Made by a program: the position numbers and the translations under genes
Assembly (NCBI GenBank): GCA_964554485.1
Contig: CAZKOX010000001.1
Span: 9,363-73,362 of the forward strand
Direction of reading: 5' to 3'
Source: an uncultured Candidatus Saccharibacteria bacterium
Lineage (GTDB): Bacteria; Patescibacteriota; Saccharimonadia; Saccharimonadales; JAGQMS01
Length of the DNA stretch: 64,000 bases
Notes under the pieces: generated by a model
What the model saw: only the letters and a program-made list of their open reading frames with translations
Told to the model about the DNA's origin: nothing
Database searches by the model: none
In this document: positions 5,086-50,843 of the stretch, piece after piece
Position numbering within the stretch: position 1 is the stretch's first letter
How the letters are laid out: the number at the start of each line of letters is the position of its first letter

Positions 5086-8000
5086 AAACTTGCTTTAAGG
5101 TATTGAGAATTATTGTTAACACGCTATCTGATGCTCGTCCGACAATCGCAGATTCTGTTGCACCTAGCCCGGTATTTCCGGCCCTGTCTTTAGAGATTGG
5201 AATTAAACTATAAACACGAGATGTAGGTAGGTCGGAAACAATCACGATGTGTTCAGTGGTTAGTTGAGTGTCCTCGGCGGTTTTGTTGTTGTAATTAGCT
5301 GCATTAGATCCTTCAGCATAGCCAACCTGGCTTGTTGCTGGTTCGTCGGTTTTCCATGAAACAACTACCTGGCCTCTTGCTTCCGCGCCAGTTCCACGAA
5401 TTGCGGATTCAATACTTATCTCTGACACTTTTGGCGGTCTTGTGTCTAGGGCTGTATGAAATTGTTGCCTATCAGAGACTGCAATATTTCCACCTTCATC
5501 TCTAGACTGAGCGACTAAGAAGTACTCGCTGTCGTCTTCAAGGTTACGAATTATTATTTCGTGATCAGTAACCAGATCAAGTACTTGTGCTTCCGTTCCA
5601 CTAGTTCCAACTTTCCCGTATGTAACTAAAGAATTGGCAGGCACGTTTGTTGTCCATGTAACAGTTTGGGTACTGGTTGGTTCGCCGATTATTGGCTGGA
5701 AACGGAGATCAGTTATTCGTGGACGCTGTGGTGTAGTAAACGAGAATACGCTACTTTCGTATGATGAGTTTTCATTATCAAATGTCAAAAGCTTGTAGAA
5801 ATATTTTGTACCATCATCAAGACCTTCAAGCTCGATTGAATAGGTAGATTCAGACAGAGAAGTATTAACTGTTGTGATCCCGCCGTAGTTTTCTCCTTTT
5901 CCGTAAAGTATAGACACCTTGGTTGCCTCTTTAGACGTAAAGGTAATTGCGGCTGTTGTTAAGCCGACGCGGCTAACTGTAATTTCTTTTAAGGACGGGG
6001 CAGGCGATGTGGTGAAGCTAAACTCTTGGCTCGTTCCAGTATTACCATCTTCATCAGTCCACTTTGCTATAGCATAGTAGGTTGTACCAGCACTTAAATT
6101 ATCTAGCTCAATTTCGTGAGCACTTACCTGGGCTGATATTGCTACTTCGGAAGGACTGTATTCACCACTAGCAGTGCCAAGCGCGATTTTTGAATCACTA
6201 GCTCTGTCCGTGCTCCATGAAACAGTAGCGCGTTTTGTGGTGATATTGCTAACTTCTGGGTTAGCGACCAAGGTAGCAGGTGAGGTGAATTTTCCGGTCG
6301 GAACTTCATTTACGACCGAACTATTTGCTCCGCAGTTATTTGTACTGTCGCAAGCTCGAAGGCGGTAGTAGTATCTCTGCTGGGCTAAGCCGGCGTCGAT
6401 ATATGTTGTACTTGAGCTACTGCCTACCTGTGAAAAAGTAGCATTATCGGTTGATCTATAAACCTTATATGAAGAGATTCCTGCCCCAACATCTGCTGGC
6501 TCGTTCCAGGTTATCGCAAGCCGCCAATTGTTAGTTGCCTTAATTGACACATCAACAATGTCGAGGTTTTCCGATATTCCAGGTGAAGGTGTGTTGGCGG
6601 TGAATACGGCAGTTCCGTAGTTGTCGTAGTTGATATTGCTAGACTCGTCTCTAGCGACCACATATATAGTATTTTCACCTGGTTGTGTCGCATAAGGACC
6701 AGCGCCTAGTGCCGTTACTCCAGCTGATGTGAAATTACAATTTATAGATGTTGGTATGGCATTTATCGTGTAACAGTACGTCAGGTTATTTACATCTCCA
6801 ACAAAAGTCGCAGGTGCGTCCCAGTCAAAAGCGAAAGAGTTTGTTACATTACTGGAAGGAGAGGCGATAATATTCAAAGGTTCTGAAGGAGCGCCACTAG
6901 TATTAATCTTAAGAGCAGCGGTTGCATAAGTACTGCTAACATTACCGGCATTATCCCAGGTCCTGAAGTAGACAGTATTTATACCCTCCTCTAAATCTAC
7001 AAAGTCTGGTGTGGGTATTGTGGTGTAACTACCGTCGTTGGCGAGTACGTCGTTTGAGTCACCGGTTCCTGTATGCGAGTCTCCGTACCAATTACCTGCA
7101 CCTATACGGTATTGCAGACCAACTAATCCGGAATTTATATCGCTCGGAGAACTAATTCCAGTGGTAGGCCAAGTTAAAGTAACCTCCTTAGAATTAATAA
7201 ACCCAGAAGGTGCGGTTATGTAAGCCGGGTTGGTTGGTGCGGTGTTATCGAACTTAAATGTGAACTGCTCGGTCGTATTGCTTATGTTTCCGGCGTTGTC
7301 GATGGCTTTGGCGAGTAAATAATAATTAGAATTGGAAGTGCTAAGAGGTGTAGCGATATATCCAGCGGTTGCGGTGTCTATGTTGTTGGTAGATATCATA
7401 AATTGGCAGTGGCCACCGGTTTCTACGGGACTTGTGCCAAGTAAACCTTTTGTAGTAACTGGGTCGGCAGTATCATCTGTCCCAAGATATAAACAATATC
7501 CTTTTATTCCGGATTCGCTATCAACCCCGGCTGTCCAGCTGAAATATGGCGATAGCCCATTAGACCAGGCGCCACTATTCAAGACACTACCTCCGTTAGC
7601 TTTTAGTGCAGCGATACTTGTGGCGTTTGCCGAAGGGTCAATAATATCTGAAGTTGCGGTTGCAGTAACACCATTTAAAGTAACTCTTTGGCTGCCGTCG
7701 CCCTGAAGTATCGCCTCCCATCGTAAACCATTGAACGTAACGGGGAAGCTGCTAATGTTGGTACTAATAGTTGTCTTGTTGTTTGCTTCAGCTATTGATC
7801 CGGATGTTTCCCAACTGTCGCCGTCCCAGTACTTCCATGTTGCGCCGTCATCGGACGAAAGGCGATACAGGATAGTTCCTCCATTTAGGGTTTCGTCAGC
7901 GTCAAAACTATCCCAGTGCCATACACCACTTTGTCGAACAGGTTCATTAAGTGAAATGCTCAAGGCGGCGTTGCTGTATGGTTTAGTGTTAAATGACGAC

Positions 8001-11000
8001 CTATTAATATTAGATATCCGAATCTCATCTAAACTACCTTCGAAGAAACCCTGAGAACGTCCATTATCAAACCCGCCATAAGATTTGCCGATTAATAAAT
8101 CCTGGTCACCGTCAGGAATAGTTAAGCTAGTATTATGAGTGCCAACGCTATTACCATCGATTAATATTTCCATGGTGGTGCCATTGTAGCGTCCTGCTAT
8201 GTGGTGCCAATTAGTATCTTGAGTGCTGGTTGAAGACTGAATAAAACCGTTATTACCGTAAGACCAAATCATGGCGTCGCCATTTGCAGTGTTCCCGGTG
8301 CTTGCGTATAACTTGCCTTGATAAACAACCATCGTTGTAACTTCTTCAATTGTGGTGTCTAGCCAGCTATCATTAAAACCATCGCCACCCACTTGCGCCC
8401 AGGATGTCCCGTTATATCTCCATACTTCACCGTCTCCAGTACTTAAACCGAGGCCGGCGTACAAGTCACCGTTATATGTAGCCATTGAACGAACGCGGTC
8501 GTAGTTATTAGAATCTAGCCAGCCCATATTGTCGCTGCCATTGCTGTCGCCGCCAATTTGCTCCCAGACTGGACTGCCGCTATCACAGTCTGAGCACGCC
8601 CAGACTTCGGCATCGTTGTTTGGAGTACCGGTACCAGATAACCCTAGTCCTACAACTAGCTTGTCGTTCCATACAACCAGAGACTGAATGTCCTCATATT
8701 TTGTGTTTGCCCAGCTGCTGTTTATGGCATCTCCTCCGACTTTTGTCCAAGTCGTACCGCTACCACTATACCGCCAGACCTCTGCTAATCCTGCAGCATT
8801 TGCACCTAGCCCAACATAAAGCGAACCCCTGTATGTTGCCATCGAACTGATGGTTGTATAGCTAGCTGTGCCCCAGTTGCCGGAAGCCGTTCCACCGATT
8901 GCTGCGCCACCCCAGTTAGGGCTCCCGCCGTCACATCCGGTGCATTCCCAGACTTCGCCATCTCCAGCACTTGATCCGAGGCCGGCGTATAATTTTCCAT
9001 TAGCAACACCAAGAGAGTAAACATATTCATAAGTCGTACTCCATGAACTGCCGACGGACGGGCTGCCGTCTGCAACCTTTGTCCAGCCTGGATTATCAAA
9101 TCTCCAAACTTCTGCTTCCCCGGCAGTACTTCCTAAACCGACGTATAATTTATTTTTATAATTTACCATCGACCATACTGCTTCATATGTATCGATAGCC
9201 CAACTGGAATCTATGCCTTGTCCACCAACAACCGACCAGAATCCAGTTGAAGGATCAAGCTCCCAGACAGTCGCATCCCCGGCAGTATTATTTCCAGTGC
9301 CGACATACATTTTGCCTCCGGCTGTAGTCGAAGATTCGATACTATCAATATTGTATTGACCCCAGCTTTTATTGACATATTTTCCACCTATACGATTTCC
9401 ACCCCAAGTTGGTGAACCGCCGTTGCAGTTCGTGCACTGCCAAAAATATGCTTCAGTCGTGTTAGTTAAGCCAGCATATACTGTTGTGTCATCTACAACA
9501 AGTGCTCGAATGCTATTATGCGTTGCATTCCAGCCGCTGTTCACATTGTCACCGCCAACTTTTGTCCAAGAACCGTCATATCGCCATACTTCGTCGTCGC
9601 CGTTTGCTGAGTTTCCTGTACCAACATACAGAGTTGAACCGTTATTGGTAATGCTAAAGATACCTTCTTTATCTACTCCAAAGTTCGCCGAACTTCCTAA
9701 TTTTGTCCAACCACTTCCAGTAGGCGTGCAGTTAATGGTGACATCACAAGACCATATTTCGGCATCGGTATTGGCGGTAATACCTGTACCAACATAAATT
9801 GTATTTCCGTTAGATGCCATCGACAAAACATACTCAGCGACAGACCCCCAACTTTGACCGCCGGCTCCAGAGCCATCACCTCCTCGCTTAGTCCAAGATG
9901 CAGAACCCGGAGTGGTGCAACTGGCGGTGCAATGCCATACTTCTGCATCACCAGCCGTAGAGCCAAGTCCTACCACTGGATTACCACCGACAACGGTCAT
10001 TGCATAAACAACTTCATAACCCGCACCCCAGCCACGAGCGCCACCGGTAGCGTTGTAGCCACCAACACGGCTACTTCCCCAGCTAGGGCTAGTCTCACAG
10101 TTAGTGCACGCCCACACTTCTCCCATATTTGCGCCTGTTCCTAGACCAGCAAATAGTGTCGTTCCGCTTACAGCTAACGAATAGACTCCATTAAAAGCAT
10201 TGCCAGCCCATCCACTATTAAGTCCGTCACCGCCAATTTTAGTCCAGGAACCAGACTTAAATCTCCAAACATCTCCGTCGTTAGTACCTGTTCCCAGACC
10301 GGCATAGAGAACATCTGTGCCGTTAGTCGCTAGGGACAATACTGCCTCGTAGGCATTGGTGCTAATCTCATTATTCCAACTGGAAAAAATACCATCTCCG
10401 GCTACTTGAGCCCACAACCCCAAAGAGGTGTCATATTCCCATATCTCAGCGTCATTAGTGCTGCCACCAAGGGCGGCATATATCTTTGACCCCATCTTTA
10501 CAGATGCGTAGGCGGTTTGTTTTCCATTTTGGTCCCAGCTGCGGTTTACCTTAGCTCCATTATTGGCCAACATGTTATATCCGGCCTGTTGTGTCCAACC
10601 CGTTGATCCTGAATTCTCTAATTCATAAGTAACTTTTCCAGTTTCATTATCGTAGTAGAGCTGGTATTCACCCTTATCTAAGATAGTCTGCCTATATTGT
10701 GAGCTTCCAGCGCTAAAGTTGCTGTCAAATTTTGTCCAACCTTCTAGGGTATTACTTGCTGTGAGCGAAAGCGATGCTGAGTCTGGCGAGATAGCATACT
10801 GAGAAGTGCCGTCTAGGGATAGGCTGTTATTTAAATTACCGGTTGCCCAGATTGGTGTATTGTTTGTGATGGCGTCATTATTGTTTGCAGAAGAATCATC
10901 TGCTGTCGTTCCGCCAAGTTCGTCAAGGTGGAATAGGGCCATGGTGTTAGCGTCGCTTGTGTAGTTCTGGGCTTTCATGCGCACGCTACTACCGCTTGTC

Positions 11001-11517: not shown

Positions 11518-12354
11518 ATGAGAAAAAACGTCAAAGGTTTTTCGGTAGTCGAAGCAGTTATTATTTTGGTAGTCGTGGCGGTCTTGGGGCTTTCGGGTTG
11601 GTGGTTTTTACAACGTCGTTCTAACACTGACAATTCTCAAAATAATAATGAAACAAGCAAAGAAGAAACCAGTTCAAACGTAAATTGGAGCTTTGACGGC
11701 GAAAAATGGAGCAGTAGCGAAGCACCACCGGCTTGCGATGATCCGTTATCGATACCTTCGCCAGTTGATATTTCAAAAGCTACGGGAATTTTATATCCAG
11801 GGCAGTATCGAGGTGGAAACTACAAACCGCACGGAGGTTTTCGATTTGATAGCAGCACCAACGCAGATATAACAGTCACGGCACCATTTGATTCGGTTGT
11901 CATAAAGGGAAGTCGATATATAGAAAGAGATGAAGTGCAGTATATGTTTGTTCTTACGACTTCCTGCGGAATTATGTATCGTTTCGATCATCTGTTGACC
12001 TTGTCTGCTGCTTTTCAAGCCTTAGCCGACACGTTACCGGCAGCAAAAGTCGATGATTCTCGAACCACTGATTTTACCTCGCCGCCAAAAGTTAAGGCTG
12101 GTGACATTATTGCGACGGCAGTTGGTTTCAAAAACACCGGTAATGTTGCGGTCGACTTCGGGGTATATGACTTAAGGCAAAAAAACAAAGCCTATGAAAG
12201 TGATAGCTGGAAAGCTGAACATTCTAATGACATGGAGGCGGCACCTTACGGTATCTGTTGGTTGAACTATTTGGCTGGTAGTGCCAAGGACGTTGCTTTA
12301 GAACTCCCGGGGGCTGACGGTCAGGCTGGTAAAACTAGTGATTACTGCGAGTAA
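11518..12354 (+). CDS. type IV prepilin-like protein (class III signal peptide)
   Basis: N-terminus MRKNVKGFSVVEAVIILVVVAVLG matches the prepilin peptidase motif [KR]-G|F-x-x-x-E followed by a hydrophobic helix. 278 aa with 4 Cys in the C-terminal half. Confidence 0.65.
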   Translation: MRKNVKGFSVVEAVIILVVVAVLGLSGWWFLQRRSNTDNSQNNNETSKEETSSNVNWSFDGEKWSSSEAPPACDDPLSIPSPVDISKATGILYPGQYRGGNYKPHGGFRFDSSTNADITVTAPFDSVVIKGSRYIERDEVQYMFVLTTSCGIMYRFDHLLTLSAAFQALADTLPAAKVDDSRTTDFTSPPKVKAGDIIATAVGFKNTGNVAVDFGVYDLRQKNKAYESDSWKAEHSNDMEAAPYGICWLNYLAGSAKDVALELPGADGQAGKTSDYCE

Positions 12355-19834: not shown

Positions 19835-21031
19835 TTGAGTTACGCATACAAAATGTCGCGTCGCCCTGGGCAACGCTCAGCTCCGCAACGTCGAGCACCA
19901 AATAACCGAGGTGGACAATATATTCACCCGTCAAAATTTATTAACAAAGCTTCAGTCGAACAAATCGCCGAGGAGGTTTTTACACCTGTTCACAGCTTTG
20001 AAACAATTGGGCTTGATGCTCGAATTGCTGAAAACCTCGCTCGTTTGGGCTATAAAGCTCCAACAGCTATTCAAGACGGTGCAATTCCAAAGGTTATTGA
20101 GGGTAAAGACCTTGTTGGCTTAGCTAACACTGGTACAGGAAAAACCGCGGCTTTTCTATTGCCTCTAATACACCGAATTCTTCAGAAAGAGATCTATCAA
20201 GTGCTGGTAATGGCTCCCACTCGAGAACTTGCCCAGCAAATTGAAGAAGAATGGCGCAAATTCGCCCAGGGTCTTCGACTATATTCGGCAATTTGTGTTG
20301 GTGGTACGAGCATGTATAACCAAATTCGATCATTACAAAAAGATCCGCACGTTGTTATTGGTACTCCTGGACGCCTAAAAGATCTTATCGAACAGGGTGC
20401 TTTGCGTCTTGAAAAATGCGATGGTCTTGTTCTTGACGAAGCCGACCGAATGCTTGATATGGGCTTTTTGCCTGACATTAAGTTCATTATGGATAAACTT
20501 CCAACCGAACGACAATCTCTTTGCTTTAGTGCAACAATTACACCTGAGATTAATCGTTTAATCGACGGAATTTTGAAGAACCCAGAAACTGTTTCTGTAC
20601 GAACCGGCGAAACAGCATCTCATGTCGACCAAGACATTATTGTTGCGAGTTCAAAAGAAGAAAAACTGGCAAAACTTCTTGAACTTCTTGCACAGCCAGA
20701 CTATGACAAGGTTTTGGTCTTTTCGCAGACTAAATGGGGTGCTCAGAAGCTTGCCGAGATGATCACGGCTGCCGGTTATAAGGCAGAAGCTATTCATGGC
20801 AATAAAACTCAGGCTCAGCGACAGAAGGCCCTACGAGCTTTCAAGGAAGGCAATGTTGCCGTACTTGTTGCTACCGATGTTGCAGCCCGTGGATTAGACA
20901 TTTCAAATGTTAGTCATGTGATTAACTTTGACCAACCAAATACCTACCAAGACTATGTTCACCGTATTGGTCGAACGGGTCGTGCTGGCAAAAAGGGTAA
21001 GGCTCTTACCTTTGTTAGTCATCATCCTTAG
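19835..21031 (+). CDS. DEAD-box ATP-dependent RNA helicase
   Basis: Q-motif, Walker A TGTGKTAAFLLP, DEAD, SAT, HRIGRTGRAG. Basic N-terminal extension. Confidence 0.9.
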   Translation: MSYAYKMSRRPGQRSAPQRRAPNNRGGQYIHPSKFINKASVEQIAEEVFTPVHSFETIGLDARIAENLARLGYKAPTAIQDGAIPKVIEGKDLVGLANTGTGKTAAFLLPLIHRILQKEIYQVLVMAPTRELAQQIEEEWRKFAQGLRLYSAICVGGTSMYNQIRSLQKDPHVVIGTPGRLKDLIEQGALRLEKCDGLVLDEADRMLDMGFLPDIKFIMDKLPTERQSLCFSATITPEINRLIDGILKNPETVSVRTGETASHVDQDIIVASSKEEKLAKLLELLAQPDYDKVLVFSQTKWGAQKLAEMITAAGYKAEAIHGNKTQAQRQKALRAFKEGNVAVLVATDVAARGLDISNVSHVINFDQPNTYQDYVHRIGRTGRAGKKGKALTFVSHHP

Positions 21032-21062
21032 TTTCGAATCCCACACCGACAAACGCTAAATA

Positions 21063-21200
21063 CCAGCAAAGCCGGCTATTTATGTTTGTCTCTTGGCTAT
21101 TTTCAGTCTATCCAGTCCAGTACTCACTTCAGCGTAGTTTATCTACGCCTCGTTCCGTGCTTCCCGGATATACCGAAACTAGCTCAAGTGTGGAATCCGA
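21063..21200 (+). repeat. conserved intergenic structured element, copy A (candidate sRNA / repetitive extragenic element family, 4 copies)
   Basis: Shares blocks ccagcaaagcc..tcttggctattttcag..tactcac..hairpin..gttccgtgcttcc..ccgaaactagctcaag with copies at 37561, 32545, 50668. Internal hairpin gcgtag/ctacgc. Confidence 0.6.
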
Positions 21201-21243
21201 GGCCACAAATCGTGCCAGCAAACTTCACTAATACCTGATAAAC

Positions 21244-21275
21244 AAAAAGACCTCGGACAACCGAGGTCTTTTTGG
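21244..21275. terminator. bidirectional Rho-independent terminator between convergent helicase and RRM genes
   Basis: aaaaagacctcgg-acaa-ccgaggtcttttt: 9-bp GC-rich stem, 4-nt loop, flanked by A-run 5' and T-run 3'. Confidence 0.75.
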
Positions 21276-32512: not shown

Positions 32513-32544
32513 CTTCCTGCCTTCTGCACCGCAACATAAAGCCA

Positions 32545-32680
32545 CAGCCAAGCTGTACCTTTATGTTGCTTTTGGCGCATTTGCAATCTTTCTTCTCCGC
32601 TACTCACTTCAGCGTACAAAGTACGCTTTGTTCCGTTGCTCGAAGAAATATCGCAACTACACTCAAATGCAAAACGCAGG
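32545..32680 (+). repeat. conserved intergenic structured element, copy C
   Basis: cagccaagctg..tttggcgcatttgcaa..tactcacttcagcgtac-aaa-gtacgct..gttccgttgctcgaag..caactacactcaaatg; hairpin agcgtac/gtacgct. Confidence 0.55.
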
Positions 32681-32754
32681 ATCGCGCCTTGCCCAGAACT
32701 AAACGCAAACTCGGAAGGAAATGGCTTATAATTTAAGGAACAGGAGGAATTACT

Positions 32755-33800: not shown

Positions 33801-33874
33801 AGCCCTGTGGTGAAGCTCGGAGTTCACATCTCCCGCACAAGGAGAAGGTCGCGGGTTCAAATCCCGCCAGGGCA
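33801..33874 (+). tRNA. tRNA-like gene, anticodon loop cgCACaa (Val-CAC by position), non-canonical G33 and A1:A72 mismatch
   Basis: Hand-folded cloverleaf: acceptor gccctg/cagggc, D-arm gtga-agctcggagt-tcac (G18G19 present), anticodon stem tctcc/ggaga, T-arm gcggg-ttcaaat-cccgc. Loop lacks U33. Confidence 0.5.
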
Positions 33875-34026
33875 GCGATGATTACAAGTCGAATATCGTC
33901 CGGTTTAATCCGGGGTAGTCATTAGCGAGCAGAGTAATCTGCTTGCGAGGGTTGGCAGACGCGCTAGCGCAGAAAGCCAATTGGGGTGGCGGTCGACCGG
34001 CAACGGTCGACTGCCACTTCACCAAG

Positions 34027-34100
34027 CGGGGATTAGCTCAATCGGTAGAGCACCCACCGTAATACGTGGCAGGTTGTGGATTCGAGTTCCGCATCCCCGA
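34027..34100 (+). tRNA. tRNA gene, identity unresolved (anticodon arm folds as 4-bp stem with 8-nt loop cgtaatac)
   Basis: Acceptor cggggat/atccccg, U8, D-arm gctc-aatcggta-gagc, T-arm gtgga-ttcgagt-tccgc, discriminator A. The anticodon region cccaccgtaatacgtgg cannot form a canonical 5-bp/7-nt arm. Confidence 0.55.
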
Positions 34101-34224
34101 CTGCTTGGAGTGTGAGCGTAAGTCTAGCTTTCCTTGAAGTGAAGGTCTTCGTGTACGAAAGTAAATGGTGGACGGTACTTTTTCACCTAACGAGACCGAC
34201 GACGACACACTCCAGGCAACCCCC

Positions 34225-34297
34225 GCCCTTGTAACTCAGTTGGCAGAGTAGCCGCCTTCAAAGCGGTATGTCATGGGTTCGAATCCCATCAGGGGCA
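34225..34297 (+). tRNA. tRNA with anticodon UCA (UGA-decoding; opal suppressor-like or recoding tRNA), canonical 73-nt class I cloverleaf
   Basis: Acceptor gcccttg/caggggc (one G-U), D-arm actc-agttggca-gagt, anticodon stem gccgc/gcggt with loop c-u-UCA-a-a, variable loop 5 nt, T-arm atggg-ttcgaat-cccat, discriminator A73. Confidence 0.7.
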
Positions 34298-34343
34298 CGT
34301 TTCCGACCACGAAGCGCACGGTATGTGTTCGTGGCGAAACAGG

Positions 34344-35095: not shown

Positions 35096-35758
35096 ATGTC
35101 AATTGCCCTGTCTGTCAAAAAACGTGAAGTTTTTGGTAACCGCGTAAAGAGTCTTTACCGCGATGGACTGATTGTTGGCAATGTTTTTGGTCGTGGCCAA
35201 ACATCGGTCGCGATTGAGGGTGATTATGAAACTATTCGAAAAGTTGTCACCGAAGCTGGCAAAAACCATCCAATTGAGCTAAAGATTGAGGGCGAAGGTG
35301 ATCATCTTGTACTAGTTAAGAATATAGACGTTGATCCGTCAAAAGGTCGAATCCGTCACGTTGAAATGCAAATGGTCAATCGAAATGAAAAAGTTGAAGC
35401 TGAAGTTCCGATTGAACTTGTTGGTACAGCGCCGGCAGTGCTTGCAGGCAACATGGTCATGACTCTAAACGACACGGTTATTGTGTCTGCTAACCCGACA
35501 AATCTTCCTGACCATCTTGAAGTGTCGGCCGAGCTACTTGTGGATCCAGAAGATATGATTACAGTTGCAAATATATCTGTTCCAAGCGGTGTCGAAATCA
35601 TGACTGAAGCTGATACGCCTTTATTTAAGGTTGAAGTACCTCGTAGCCAGGTTGAAGAAGCTGCTGAAGAGGGTGCTGAAGGTGAAGTTAGTGCGGCTGA
35701 TGTTCCAGCTGAACACGGCAGTGAAGATGCTGGATCTGAAGAAGCAAGCGAAAAGTAA
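35096..35758 (+). CDS. rplY: 50S ribosomal protein L25 / general stress protein Ctc (long form with acidic tail)
   Basis: N-terminal L25 fold block (LSVKKREVFGNRVKSLYRDGLIVGNVFG), C-terminal Glu/Ala-rich extension. SD agaggag upstream. Confidence 0.85.
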   Translation: MSIALSVKKREVFGNRVKSLYRDGLIVGNVFGRGQTSVAIEGDYETIRKVVTEAGKNHPIELKIEGEGDHLVLVKNIDVDPSKGRIRHVEMQMVNRNEKVEAEVPIELVGTAPAVLAGNMVMTLNDTVIVSANPTNLPDHLEVSAELLVDPEDMITVANISVPSGVEIMTEADTPLFKVEVPRSQVEEAAEEGAEGEVSAADVPAEHGSEDAGSEEASEK

Positions 35759-35776: not shown

Positions 35777-37546
35777 GTGAAGCCAATACTAAAAATTCTA
35801 GCTCAAGCCAAAAGTTTGTGGCCATATTACACAGTTATTAGCATATTTTCAGTATTACTTGCAGCCTCAAACTTACTTTGGCCGATATTTAGTGGAATGT
35901 TAATTGACGAGATTAGACTTGGCGCGTCGGCTGACACCGGGCGGGTAGTATTTTTAGTCAGCATGGTTTTTTTGCAAGACCTTGGCACGACTGTATTTTC
36001 TAATTTAGGTGGCTATATCGGCGATATGATGACAGTAAGACTGAGGCGAACGCTTAGTAATAAGTATTTTGAACACCTGCTTAGCCTGCCGCAGAGTTAT
36101 TTTGATACAGAACTTACTGGCAAAATAATTAACCGACTAAGCCGCTCTATTGACCAAATTACCGTATTCATTCAGGCCATGAGTAACAACTTTTTGCAAT
36201 TCATCTTTACGGCAGTATTTTCTTTAATTTTTGTGGCACTGATAAGTTGGCCAACAGCATTGATGTTGGCGACTCTATACCCAATATTTATTTTTATGAC
36301 GGTTCGCACTAGTAATAAGTGGCAGAGTTATCAGCAGGACATAAACGTTCATCGTGACATTGCTACAGGCCGTTTCGCAGAAGCTATATCGCAAATTAAG
36401 GTTGTCAAAAGCTTTATCCGTGAAAAGACAGAATTGTTATTTTTTGATCGTCACTTAAATTCTGCCAATAATATTTCTAAACCTCAAAGTATACTTTGGC
36501 ACCGCGAAGATACTAAACGGCGAACCATCTTAAACGTAGTCTTTTTTGCGGTTTATATGTTTATTTTTGTGCAAGCTTCAAAAGGAACATTTACGCCGGG
36601 GCAGGCGGTAACCTTATTCCTTCTAGCTTTCAATATTCGTTTTCCGATCTTTACGATTAGTTTCTTAGTTGAAAACACCCAAAAAGCTGTGGCTGATAGC
36701 AAAGATTATTTTGAAGTTATGGACATTAAGTCGACTATTATGGATATTGAAAATGCTAAAAAATTAAACGTAAACAAGGGCGCGATTAGTTTTTCTGACG
36801 TTAAGTTTTCTTATTCTAAAGAGGCCGTACTGCGCGGTCTTAACTTCGATATTAAGCCCGACACGAAGGTAGCATTAGTTGGTGAGAGCGGTGAAGGAAA
36901 AACAACAATAACTAATTTATTGATGCGTTTGTATGAGCCAACAGGTGGAACGATACAAATTGACGGACAAGATATAACAAAAGTTACTCAAAAAAGTCTT
37001 CGCGAGAACATTGGTGTAGTTTTTCAAGAACCGGCGTTATTTAGTGGCACGATACGCGAAAACATTGCCTATGCTAATCCTAAAGCGTCTGATGCGATGA
37101 TTATCGCTGCGGCAAAAGCTGCAAATGCTCATGAATTCATTATTAAATTTGAAGAAAAATACGATTCTCAGATAGGTGAACGCGGCTTAAAGTTATCTGG
37201 TGGCCAAAAGCAACGTATTGCGATTGCTAGAGCGATCTTAAAGGACGCGCCAATATTAATATTGGATGAGGCAACTAGTAGCTTAGATAATAAAAGCGAA
37301 CTTCTTGTTCAGGAAGCACTGGAGCGTCTAATGAAAGGACGCACTACAATTATTATCGCCCACCGCCTCAGTACTATTCAGAACGTCGATACGATTATTA
37401 CCCTGCAGAAGGGTGTTGTTCAAGAGATCGGTTCGCCAGAAAGTCTTGCTAAAAGTGGTGGTATATATGCAAGACTTCTCGAGCTGCAGCATCATAAAAG
37501 CACAGAGGCTTCTAAGAAACAACTCAAGTCCTTTGAACTTGCCTAG
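35777..37546 (+). CDS. ABC transporter, fused permease/ATP-binding (type I exporter, MsbA-like)
   Basis: 6-TM N-terminal domain, Walker A GESGEGKTT, signature LSGGQKQRIAIARA, Walker B ILILDEATS. Confidence 0.9.
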   Translation: MKPILKILAQAKSLWPYYTVISIFSVLLAASNLLWPIFSGMLIDEIRLGASADTGRVVFLVSMVFLQDLGTTVFSNLGGYIGDMMTVRLRRTLSNKYFEHLLSLPQSYFDTELTGKIINRLSRSIDQITVFIQAMSNNFLQFIFTAVFSLIFVALISWPTALMLATLYPIFIFMTVRTSNKWQSYQQDINVHRDIATGRFAEAISQIKVVKSFIREKTELLFFDRHLNSANNISKPQSILWHREDTKRRTILNVVFFAVYMFIFVQASKGTFTPGQAVTLFLLAFNIRFPIFTISFLVENTQKAVADSKDYFEVMDIKSTIMDIENAKKLNVNKGAISFSDVKFSYSKEAVLRGLNFDIKPDTKVALVGESGEGKTTITNLLMRLYEPTGGTIQIDGQDITKVTQKSLRENIGVVFQEPALFSGTIRENIAYANPKASDAMIIAAAKAANAHEFIIKFEEKYDSQIGERGLKLSGGQKQRIAIARAILKDAPILILDEATSSLDNKSELLVQEALERLMKGRTTIIIAHRLSTIQNVDTIITLQKGVVQEIGSPESLAKSGGIYARLLELQHHKSTEASKKQLKSFELA

Positions 37547-37560
37547 TCACGCCATCTGCA

Positions 37561-37715
37561 CCAGCAAAGCCTGCTCTTTAGCAACAAAGCTAAAGACACC
37601 GCTTAGCTTCTTGGCTATTTTCAGCCTACCTAGTCCAGTACTCATGTCGGAGTAGTATTGCCTACACCTTGTTCCGTGCTTCCTAGGTATGCCGAAACTA
37701 GCTCAAGCGCGGAAG
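37561..37715 (+). repeat. conserved intergenic structured element, copy B (with extra inserted hairpin ctttagc/gctaaag)
   Basis: ccagcaaagcc..tcttggctattttcag..tactcatgtcggagtag-tattgc-ctacacc..gttccgtgcttcc..ccgaaactagctcaagcgcgg. Confidence 0.6.
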
Positions 37716-37787
37716 GCGTGCGGTGCTGGGTGTGGTGAAAAAAGCTTTGAGGGATTGGGTCCTGTATGGCTATACTAAAACTCACAA

Positions 37788-38336
37788 ATGGCAACATCAA
37801 AAGCAGTTCGGGGGTTATCGCTAGCAATGGCTTTATTCTTCTTAGCTAGCTCGATCGTCACCGTAATATTAATATCCCAGCAATCTAAAAACAACGCCGA
37901 ACAAGATGCTATTCAGCAACAGTCGGCACAGGAGGTGTGTGAAGTGGCAGATAACGCAACAAGTACAACAGTAGTGGGTGATCCGCTTAAACTTGACGGA
38001 CCAGTAAGTGAACTACAGATTATCGATACTAAAGCAGGTAGCGGTGATACTGTGCAGCTTAACGACTGCATTACGGTTAACTATCGACTAAATCTTGCCG
38101 ATGGCTCGATTGTTGCCGGCAACGATACTTTCACCAGCGGTAGCCCGATCGCTTTTCAACTTAGTGAAGGTGGGTTAATTGCTGGCTGGATCCAAGGATT
38201 GCCGGGCATGAAGGTTGGCGGCTTGAGGCGCCTGGTTGTGCCTGCAGCGCTTGCTTATGGCGACAGAGCTACCGGCAGCGTACCGGCTAATTCGGATCTA
38301 GTTTTTGATATTGAGGTACTTGACACTAAGCGTTAG
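37788..38336 (+). CDS. FKBP-type peptidyl-prolyl cis-trans isomerase, membrane-anchored
   Basis: N-terminal TM; FKBP domain block VTVNYRLNLADGSIV..FQLSEGGLIAGWIQGLPGMKVGGLRRLVVPAALAYG. Confidence 0.85.
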   Translation: MATSKAVRGLSLAMALFFLASSIVTVILISQQSKNNAEQDAIQQQSAQEVCEVADNATSTTVVGDPLKLDGPVSELQIIDTKAGSGDTVQLNDCITVNYRLNLADGSIVAGNDTFTSGSPIAFQLSEGGLIAGWIQGLPGMKVGGLRRLVVPAALAYGDRATGSVPANSDLVFDIEVLDTKR

Positions 38337-50431: not shown

Positions 50432-50667
50432 GAACGTTGTAAAGATTACTGCTTGTGCTTATTCAATTTTAGTCGTAAGATTCGACTAACAAATCTTAAA
50501 AAAACAAAAAAGGTGCTACAAATGAACGAATCATCATTGAGAGAGATTTTAGTTGTTTCTGGACTCACGGTTTTTAGCTTCTGTGCTGTTGTCGCTGGCG
50601 TCATGTCCTAACATCCAACGCACACACCGCGTTTTATTAGATCGAAGTAAATTCGAACTAATAAAAC

Positions 50668-50780
50668 GTTCTTGGTATCCAGAACATTTTTCGGTTGCGT
50701 CTACTCACCAGGCAGTACCATCGTACAGCCTGGCTCCGTTGCTCACCGAGAAAATGCCCTAGATACTCAAGTGTGTGCGT
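50668..50780 (+). repeat. conserved intergenic structured element, copy D
   Basis: cttggtatccagaacatttttcgg..tactcacc-aggcagtaccatcgtacagcctgg..ctccgttgctcaccgag..ctagatactcaagtgtg; hairpin ccaggc/gcctgg. Confidence 0.55.
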
Positions 50781-50843
50781 TGTTGTGTCTGGAGTGTCGT
50801 ATGTGTGCATTGTTGCGACGATAGGTGTCGTACAATATAGGGT

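Follow-up and report, generated by a model that had tools for sequence, protein, structure and literature searches.

What is the element that recurs, always in one orientation and between unrelated genes, along a 64-kb stretch of the genome of an uncultured saccharibacterium (here called the window)? Saccharibacteria and other Patescibacteria have tiny, streamlined genomes, and to our knowledge almost nothing is known of their non-coding RNA or mobile DNA. An earlier note, made from the letters of the window, described four intergenic copies of a series of ordered blocks around a covarying hairpin, and proposed either a novel structured small RNA (sRNA) or a repeat resembling REP sequences or MITEs (miniature transposable elements with inverted repeats). 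Here, we report that the copies are larger than this description allowed, that structural selection acts on the strand opposite to the one proposed, and that they belong to a family which the evidence largely establishes as previously undescribed, dispersed, insertable, structured, and intergenic, in Saccharimonadales. As to what the family does, we tentatively favor a structured repeat that acts in cis as RNA.

Number, architecture, and strand of the copies

The window holds exactly four copies, all on the minus strand, at approximately 21033-21206 (copy A), 32513-32686 (C), 37547-37740 (B), and 50609-50790 (D). An nhmmer profile built from the four stretches matched nothing else in the 64 kb, and covariance models, including a run with filters off, recovered the same four at E values of 2e-27 to 2e-15, with the next match at about 3; neither method found a fifth copy in the window. 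The places and the shared orientation given in the earlier note are thus borne out. Its extents and its single hairpin with a closing helix had to be revised: each copy is about 175-195 nucleotides (nt) long, and the helix that it took for the closing one corresponds to P1-P3 of the scheme below, the actual closing helix lying beyond the ends it had drawn.

The evidence goes most of the way toward establishing the element as a three-way junction, made of a closing helix (P0, 12-17 bp), a hairpin of about 100 nt (H1), and a hairpin of about 40 nt (H2). Read along the window minus strand, the order is P0 5' strand, H1, a single linker A, H2, GG, and P0 3' strand. H1 in turn begins with P1, in which YUUG and a bulged A precede 4-5 bp; a G.A mismatch separates P1 from P2 (7 bp), an A.G mismatch separates P2 from P3 (7 bp), and beyond P3 come the core loop and P4, a hairpin of 7 bp in which GUA/UAC is nearly invariant. 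H2, which is present in every copy, often has AGCUAGN as its outer stem, with the internal loop lying around GUGC/GCAGG and GCUNNGC at the apex, and the tail that follows GG pairs with the 12-17 nt directly upstream of H1 to form P0. In copy A, which lies past the stop codon (21031) of a DEAD-box helicase gene and ahead of the terminator of a convergent RRM gene, the P0 5' strand (..CCUCGGAUUCCACA, 21189-21206) forms a duplex of -21 kcal/mol with the 3' strand (UGUGGGAUUCG.., 21033-21045). Fold and pair counts place H1 at 21092-21188, with the core strands GAAGCACGGAAC (5', 21152-21163) and GUGAGUACUGGA (3', 21116-21127), and covariation supports H2 at 21048-21090, with its apical CCGGC-UUU-GCUGG; the junction GG is at 21046-21047. 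The plus-strand blocks gTTCCGTGCTTc and TACTCAC of the earlier note are these 5' and 3' core strands seen from the other side. Its first block (ccagcaaagcc; ccagcaaagccgg in copy A) is part of H2, and the hairpin ctttagc-aacaaa-gctaaag, which it regarded as an insertion peculiar to copy B, is the inner stem of the H2 that all copies share.

Very strong covariation was found in every helix. Among 47 distinct H1 sequences, 89.6% of the pair cells held standard pairs, compared with 63% in shuffles and 21-41% with slid partners, and 33 of the 36 pairs changed on both sides. In alignment A5, made by plain MAFFT from 19 full-length copies with no fitting to the structure, P0 was 94.7% paired with both-side changes in 13 of 13 pairs, the outer stem of H2 was 93.9% paired with all six pairs covarying, and the structure as a whole was 87.7% paired, as against 65% in shuffles and 35-41% with slid partners. 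The observed structure statistics were reached in none of 500 shuffles, and the median duplex energy of P0 was -21.5 kcal/mol for cognate versus -10.5 kcal/mol for non-cognate strands. Within the window, the pairs that changed on both sides with pairing kept numbered 9 between A and B, 17 between A and C, and 20 between C and D; the earlier note was right about the order of the blocks, about a central hairpin that covaries, and about outer blocks that complement each other. Covariation on a strand-specific structure, the generic hallmark of a structured non-coding RNA, is therefore present.

Strong sequence conservation is confined to three places, namely the H1 core, the foot of P1 (YUUG-A-G...C-CAAR), and small motifs in H2, whereas the outer part of P0, that is, the ends of the element, is the most variable. 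The core is not an open loop. Its strands, 5' GA-AGCAC-G-GA-N-C and 3' G-N'-GA-GUACU-G-GA, form a helix, P3b, made by the pairing of the two 5-mers on either side of a C.A or A.A mismatch at the center; these pairs are 100% paired and covary in variant copies (A-U to G-C and G-C to C-G). Copy C has a core variant, GAGCAACGGAAC / GUGAGUAGCGGA, in its H1 (32571-32667). The N-N' position also pairs, with 18 AU, 9 CG, 9 GC, and 5 GU, and a bulged G and tandem G.A/A.G remain on each side of P3b. The core is thus pseudo-two-fold symmetric, with GA-NNNNN-G-GA on both strands, and diverged copies keep this form with other letters, for example GA-GCAGC-GCA on both strands. At least three subtypes, differing in P1-P2 sequence and in core letters, coexist within single genomes.

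In a kink-turn, a bulge of three nucleotides and then tandem sheared G.A / A.G pairs join a canonical helix to a non-canonical one. The strand topology of the core (helix, bulge, GA/GA, helix) would fit this on both sides of P3b, but the bulge is a single G in the register that covariation supports. A sarcin-ricin reading of the core (AGUA/GAA) is ruled out by the covarying N-N' pair and by the register of P3b, and the likenesses of the element to the signal recognition particle or to 5S loop E presumably amount to short shared strings. The product of the L25/CTC gene binds loop E of 5S rRNA; a gene for this ribosomal protein lies at 35096-35758, two genes upstream of copy B, and is mentioned solely because the core is a symmetric G/A-rich loop.

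Departures from the common architecture were seen at a set of variant loci (L049 2731-2900, L072, L041 at about 8480-8570, L055 21-452, L043 522-583, and L045/L047). They include extra hairpins inserted in the strands of P2 and P3, two tandem copies 226 nt apart, a 62-nt mini version reduced to P3, core, and P4, and copies in which a U8 run or a canonical terminator comes straight after H1 in place of H2.

The earlier note had read the structure on the plus strand. The window minus strand, which is antisense to the flanking plus-strand genes and is called the sense strand here, folds better and carries the G.U pairs and G.A motifs. Minus-strand folds of the four copies reach -49, -42, -50, and -53 kcal/mol (z -5.2, -3.8, -4.4, and -6.7), the first of these values belonging to H1 of copy A and the last to H1 of copy D, compared with -36, -37, -33, and -42 kcal/mol (z -3.1, -2.9, -2.1, and -3.4) for the plus strand, where copy A again supplies the first value. 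The A.C and pyrimidine-pyrimidine mismatches of the plus strand correspond on the minus strand to G.U pairs and to single G.A mismatches, whose positions are fixed; family-wide, there are 122 G.U and U.G cells versus 53 A.C and C.A cells in the minus sense. The sense orientation is the more stable one for H1 in 45 and for H2 in 36 of the 47 copies, and conserved single G.A mismatches and tandem G.A pairs are found on the minus strand only. Cytosine deamination on the leading strand, which by GC skew is the plus strand of the window, would bias the mismatches in the opposite direction, so that the asymmetry points to selection acting on a single-stranded form of the minus strand, either RNA or DNA. 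Structural selection acts on the window minus strand.

Distribution, turnover, and conservation in place

By homology of the flanking genes, the host belongs to Saccharimonadales (Saccharibacteria), its best relatives being metagenome-assembled genomes (MAGs) of this order. A protein-anchored scan with one genome per species yielded 23 Saccharibacteria loci, of which one (L026) carries a copy. A search pattern derived from the core, GAAGCACGGANC-N15-40-GAGTACTGGA, found 46 metagenome loci in soil, groundwater, wastewater, and other samples, and no match in viral contigs. A model derived from copies A-C gave full-length matches at almost every one of these loci and detected additional copies that lack the pattern, and a second model, built from 51 hits, gave 57 copies in all. 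Beyond the window, then, there are about 50 further copies in metagenomes and one in a Saccharibacteria MAG. The density is one copy per 4-16 kb: the 64-kb window has four, and L076 has three within 11.7 kb. With filters off, none turned up in 98 kb drawn from five other Saccharibacteria loci, L011 among them.

Phage, plasmid, and viral collections contained no match to the element, and an origin from any of these was rejected on that ground. With Rfam 15 at the gathering threshold, the window and 19 loci gave matches to tRNAs and the L10 leader only, and permissive scans of copies A and D gave only terminator-type or chance matches outside the element. Full-text searches of the literature on Saccharibacteria turned up no description of such an element. 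The absence of Rfam matches at gathering and permissive thresholds alike rejects a known RNA family, in agreement with the earlier note, which had not recognized one.

The presence or absence of the element at orthologous sites is precise. In the syntenic locus L011, whose ABC exporter is 85% identical in amino acid sequence, the TAG stop codon of the exporter is followed at once by TGAAAAAAGC, and the window has 194 extra bases at this point; the boundaries of the inserted unit (37547-37740) are taken from this empty orthologous site (TAG next to TGAAAAAAGCTTTGAG). A second pair consists of a filled site at L041:8572 and an empty one in L054. The copy that follows the DUF2207 gene is of one subtype in the window (copy C) and of another in L026. 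Copy D exists among strains as two alleles that are 69% identical and differ by 11 compensated pairs within flanks that are 98-99% identical; the dimorphic tract of about 240 bp (50563-50800; loci L001-L010) comprises the element and the last codons of a 29-codon open reading frame (ORF). H1 sequences of the window copies are 49-83% identical to one another, with no near-identical burst, and no conserved flanking tetranucleotide was found.

Each copy, once in place, is kept intact by selection. Between strains, only 0-2 differences per 175-194 nt separate the versions of copies A, B, and C, apart from a 3-nt indel at B in two strains, whereas the same strains differ at 3.6-7.4% of four-fold sites (P for copies A-C, 1.7e-6 to 1.2e-3) and by 1.8% in other intergenic DNA. 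The copies thus evolve far more slowly within the species than synonymous sites do.

The genomic contexts are varied. Copies follow tuf and other genes, separate the L10 leader from rplJ, occupy the rplJ-rplL spacer, and lie between a methyltransferase gene and rpmA, in the mnmA leader, between divergent -10 boxes, and, as two divergent copies, around a bidirectional terminator between convergent genes. Both orientations occur, and the description of the copies as 3' elements after co-oriented genes fails for the family, which also occupies 5' leaders, spaces between cistrons, and divergent promoter regions. The 5' leaders (rplJ, rpmA, and mnmA) are a minority, most copies following genes or lying antisense; with unrelated neighbors and no consistent upstream co-oriented position, a riboswitch or other cis-acting 5' leader is rejected, and the earlier judgment that a gene-specific riboswitch is unlikely stands. 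In L053 (1759-2170) and L035 (2300-2680), a copy separates the canonical Rfam L10 leader from the rplJ start, antisense in the former and sense in the latter, and the copy in the rplJ-rplL spacer is H1-only in L053 and degenerate and flipped in L035. Inversion in place was considered for this pair of loci and rejected: the two copies are not each other's closest relatives, and independent insertion is possible. An invertible promoter switch was rejected as well, as all strain contigs are oriented like the window and flanking repeats are not conserved. So was replication-oriented insertion of the IS200/IS605 kind, since the copies do not track the lagging-strand template in their orientation and do not share one direction within the contigs L046, L053, L054, L073, and L074.

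Possible modes of action

The habits of a dispersed repeat, combined with strand-specific covariation, conserved loops, and purifying selection at each locus, lead us to favor, with reservations, a REP/ERIC/BOX-like structured module that has spread through intergenic DNA, is passively transcribed with its neighbors, and acts in cis as sense RNA. Insertion or duplication would have carried the family into intergenic DNA in either orientation, and copies would be transcribed by read-through, as parts of operon spacers or leaders, or through divergent promoter activity. The transcribed sense strand would fold into the three-way junction, and the folded RNA would act in cis as a transcript-boundary, processing, or stability module that may also modulate translation. 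The long P0 is a plausible processing stalk of the RNase III type. In some copies it would also occlude a downstream ribosome-binding site: the Shine-Dalgarno (SD) sequence (AAGAGG) and AUG of rpmA, which encodes L27, lie inside the P0 3' strand in L054 (6590-6610) and L041 (about 7000-7010), so that formation of P0 would sequester them. The symmetric G/A core is a candidate docking site for a dimeric protein, and host-level selection would maintain each copy. Between the two kinds of element that the earlier note had offered, sRNA and REP- or MITE-like repeat, presence and absence at orthologous sites, the two orientations, the range of contexts, the lack of a promoter, and the patchy distribution favor the repeat, though not in the form of a classical MITE.

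Several points weigh against the cis-acting module. To the observed structure, strand, modularity, contexts, and selection it adds sense-strand transcription, protein binding, and processing, all three of which we infer. About half of the copies face against local transcription, which is the main weakness of every RNA model. Once duplicates are removed, tandem-gene contexts comprise 10 antisense and 7 sense copies, a difference that is not significant, and an RNA functional only in the sense orientation would thus be wrongly oriented in about half of the cases, barring frequent antisense or divergent transcription. Of the four window copies, three run antisense to the genes on either side, and copy A is behind a terminator. 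On the side of insertion, conserved terminal inverted repeats are lacking, as P0 pairs in every copy with a sequence that covaries; target-site duplications, which the earlier note had named as a sign of a MITE, are absent both at copy B (between TAG and TGAAAAAAGC, with at most 1 nt of ambiguity) and at L041:8572 compared with L054; and no transposase, integrase, or reverse transcriptase is encoded in the 64-kb window or beside the examined copies. The first two of these absences also leave a classical MITE unsupported. Finally, gathering metagenome loci by the core pattern over-estimates core conservation in that set, the true variation being visible in copies without the pattern, and covariation can in principle also arise at the DNA level, by template-switch 'correction' in long quasi-palindromes. 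A strong antisense bias ('anti-antisense barrier') was also entertained and given up when a ratio of 14:3 fell to 10:7 after removal of duplicates and tighter ORF calls.

The element works most like REP/REPIN or ERIC-type repeats and yet fails their defining features. For REP and REPIN sequences, roles in mRNA stability and termination have been proposed (PMC3116915, PMC3337134, bioRxiv 10.64898/2026.03.23.713779). The element shares with them intergenic dispersal, often at gene ends, an imperfect hairpin of about 100 nt, both orientations, presumed co-transcription, and long persistence. Unlike them, it has no conserved foot of the GTAG type, its motifs being the GA-N5-GGA loops and YUUG/CAAR; it is not a palindrome of 20-40 nt or a doublet hairpin but a structure of about 180 nt with three helices, one of them closing, and an internal-loop core; and whereas REPIN copies cluster around a master sequence, the H1 sequences of the window do not approach one. 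REP and REPIN sequences are mobilized by RAYT transposases, whose single-copy gene (Y1 HUH) they flank; no RAYT gene was found in the window or in the short contigs examined. ERIC, BOX, RUP, and Correia-type repeats have conserved terminal inverted repeats, often target-site duplications, and high identity between copies. They are like the element in being 100-200 bp long, forming long RNA hairpins, lying in intergenic DNA including operons, and being patchy, and they can alter the processing, stability, or translation of neighbors; the variable termini, conserved internal loops, and strong strand asymmetry of the element are unlike them. Integron attC sites likewise keep structure over sequence, fold on one specific strand with imperfect pairing, and lie at gene 3' ends, but the element has no R'/R'' core sites (GTTRRRY / RYYYAAC), cassette array, or integrase, forms a three-way junction, and occurs in the window at intervals of 5-13 kb among housekeeping genes. 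A retron msr-msd resembles it in its paired ends (P0 being a1/a2-like), in having one short and one long hairpin, and in that the complement of the transcribed strand could fold, whereas no window protein has a reverse transcriptase domain, the copies are many and dispersed, and all three helices favor the same strand. The intervening sequences that RNase III excises from 23S rRNA, and rRNA processing stalks, are comparable as patchy, insertable modules whose long end helix could be cut; the element differs in being intergenic rather than ribosomal, in that its cleavage is putative only, and in its conserved core of protein-binding aspect.

Among the alternatives, a family of trans-acting sRNAs or ribonucleoprotein (RNP) components is a minority possibility in our estimation. 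Each copy would be a gene for an RNA of about 180 nt, P0 would protect it or set its processing, the core would bind a dimeric protein, and the many paralogs would provide dosage or variant scaffolds. Strand-specific structural selection, conserved loops amid freely covarying stems, paired 5' and 3' ends such as many stable RNAs have, purifying selection at each site, and the coexistence of three subtypes across organisms all fit this idea. So do a -10-like box just upstream of P0 in some copies (L026, L063, and L068), a terminator-like hairpin just downstream in others (A, B, L050, L061, L070, and L076), and the fact that the -10 boxes of the plus-strand genes beside B, C, and D also read TANNNT on the other strand (TAGTAT, TAAATT, and TATTGT). 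Such signals are not consistent, however: TANNNT stands 3-12 nt before P0 in 10 of 35 copies versus 5 of 35 on the control side, and terminators were called for 17 of 45 copies versus 11 of 45 on the other strand, several of them inside H2, neither of which is an enrichment. Many copies, moreover, fill the whole space that a stop codon leaves before the following promoter or start codon, so that signals of their own would not fit, others are embedded in operons or 5' leaders, and absence from close relatives would be unusual for a core RNP. The copies contain no ORF of their own.

Doubtful to a similar degree is selfish, non-autonomous mobile DNA of the REPIN/PATE type, in which the sense strand would fold as single-stranded DNA and be recognized by a HUH/RAYT-like or other recombinase encoded elsewhere, the structure serving transposition. 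This would account for the precise presence or absence at orthologous sites, the insertion in both orientations and in every intergenic context, the patchiness, the different subtypes at one site between lineages, and the nested, tandem, truncated, and mini copies (L049, L072, L055, L054:6888, and L043); G.T wobble and tandem G.A pairs can form without RNA. Its main weakness is slow evolution in place together with unconserved ends. Copies A-C are conserved between strains to an extent not expected of a host-neutral insertion, and the ends are the least conserved part and come without target-site duplication or a flanking tetranucleotide. Within-genome copies are only 50-83% identical and show no near-identical burst, no candidate enzyme is encoded in the window or beside any examined copy, and by GC skew the folding strand in the window is the leading-strand template rather than the exposed lagging-strand template.

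Another scenario that we regard as unlikely, if worth keeping in view, is that the element is the RNA or single-stranded DNA half of a system, so far not known, that is specific to some Patescibacteria. A dedicated dimeric protein would recognize the GA-N5-GGA core and either excise the module from transcripts, as 'punctuation' that sets mRNA ends and yields an abundant RNP in genomes poor in conventional signals, or move it by a new mechanism without terminal repeats or target duplication.

A polar composite terminator or attenuator is less probable again. Here, H2 of the plus strand with the following UCUUGG/UUUUGG(CUAUUUU) would end the upstream gene, the other orientation would allow read-through, and orientation would set operon boundaries. 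In the tandem contexts of B, C, and D, nothing else that could serve as a terminator separates the upstream gene from the promoter that follows, U(C/U)UUGG always comes after the complement of H2, and sense copies do occur inside operons and leaders while antisense copies are followed by a promoter. However, the U tract has only 3-4 residues and belongs to helix P1, the sense strand has no U tract after either P0 or H2, a scan of the plus strand called a terminator in copy C only, and a canonical terminator adjoins copy A. Termination would require H2 alone, which leaves the 100-nt H1, the conserved core, P0, and the excess stability of the opposite strand unexplained.

The weakest candidate, a plus-strand structured sRNA or 3'-untranslated-region hairpin after plus-strand genes, as the earlier note had it, is very improbable: this strand is certain to be transcribed in copy A at the least, which the helicase stop codon precedes and the terminator follows, and it still folds (z -2.1 to -3.4), but folding energies (on average 8 kcal/mol less stable, and less stable in 45 of 47 copies), the excess of G.U over A.C, and the G.A motifs, which become A.C and pyrimidine-pyrimidine mismatches in it, tell strongly against it as the structured RNA, and other members are oppositely oriented relative to their genes.

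At one copy per 4-16 kb, as in the window and L076, the element would fill about 1% or more of the genomes that carry it, and it is kept intact by selection and lies beside core genes, including tuf, rplJ/rplL, rpmA, ATP synthase genes, and uvrB. If it acts as RNA, it would represent a new way to shape transcript ends or translation and a well-defined candidate RNA-protein interaction; if it is mobile DNA, it would be a repeat family of unusual architecture with no recognizable signature of transposition. The covariance model is ready for the annotation of Saccharibacteria genomes. Saccharibacteria can be transformed naturally (PMC10633639), and intergenic sites regarded as 'neutral' in these bacteria should be engineered with caution.

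Neighbors of the window copies and other features

All genes that flank the window copies are housekeeping genes: those for the DEAD-box helicase and the RRM protein at copy A, a DUF2207 protein and a histidine phosphatase at C, the ABC exporter and an FKBP at B, and an SLOG protein and UvrB at D. Copy C begins directly after the stop codon of the DUF2207 gene (32512), with H2 at 32531-32569. In copy B, H1 occupies 37610-37707 and H2 37563-37608, and the P0 5' strand (37708-37727) pairs with 37547-37560. Copy D has H1 at 50671-50771 and a long, A/U-rich H2 at 50630-50668; all of these features are on the minus strand.

At copy D, the stop codon of the 29-codon ORF mentioned above (50523-50612; MNESSLREILVVSGLTVFSFCAVVAGVMS) falls within the P0 3' strand. 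This ORF encodes a hydrophobic peptide, is preceded by an SD-like sequence, and ends inside that strand. A type I toxin-antitoxin system was considered here, the ORF being convergent with the element, and was rejected, as the other copies have no counterpart.

The separate terminator that the earlier note had placed after copy A does exist, but it belongs to the convergent RRM gene, at whose end it lies, and its shape is bidirectional (aaaaagacctcgg-acaa-ccgaggtcttttt, 21243-21274); it is outside the element, and terminator-type partial Rfam matches support it. Minus-strand terminator-like hairpins with U tracts also occur at 20996-21010 and 37525-37541, within the final codons of the genes for the helicase and the ABC exporter, 25-45 nt past the 3' ends of copies A and B; they are not family-wide.

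At several sites a -10 box stands only 6-12 nt before the start codon (window 37747-37788; L041 8436-8451 and 8686-8702; L026 at about 11930-11950), which suggests leaderless or nearly leaderless mRNAs. In L041, the element separates a divergent pair of -10 boxes; at the empty site in L054, the two boxes overlap.

Lastly, an 830-nt non-coding stretch of the window contains three unusual tRNA-like genes at 33801-34298. One is a tRNA-Val(CAC); the second is tRNA-shaped, with an 8-nt anticodon loop, and could not be assigned by ARAGORN; the third is a 74-nt tRNA with anticodon UCA that ARAGORN labels SeC, although it is too short for tRNA-Sec. As TGA ends 7 of the 50 window ORFs, a tRNA that reads UGA is unexpected.

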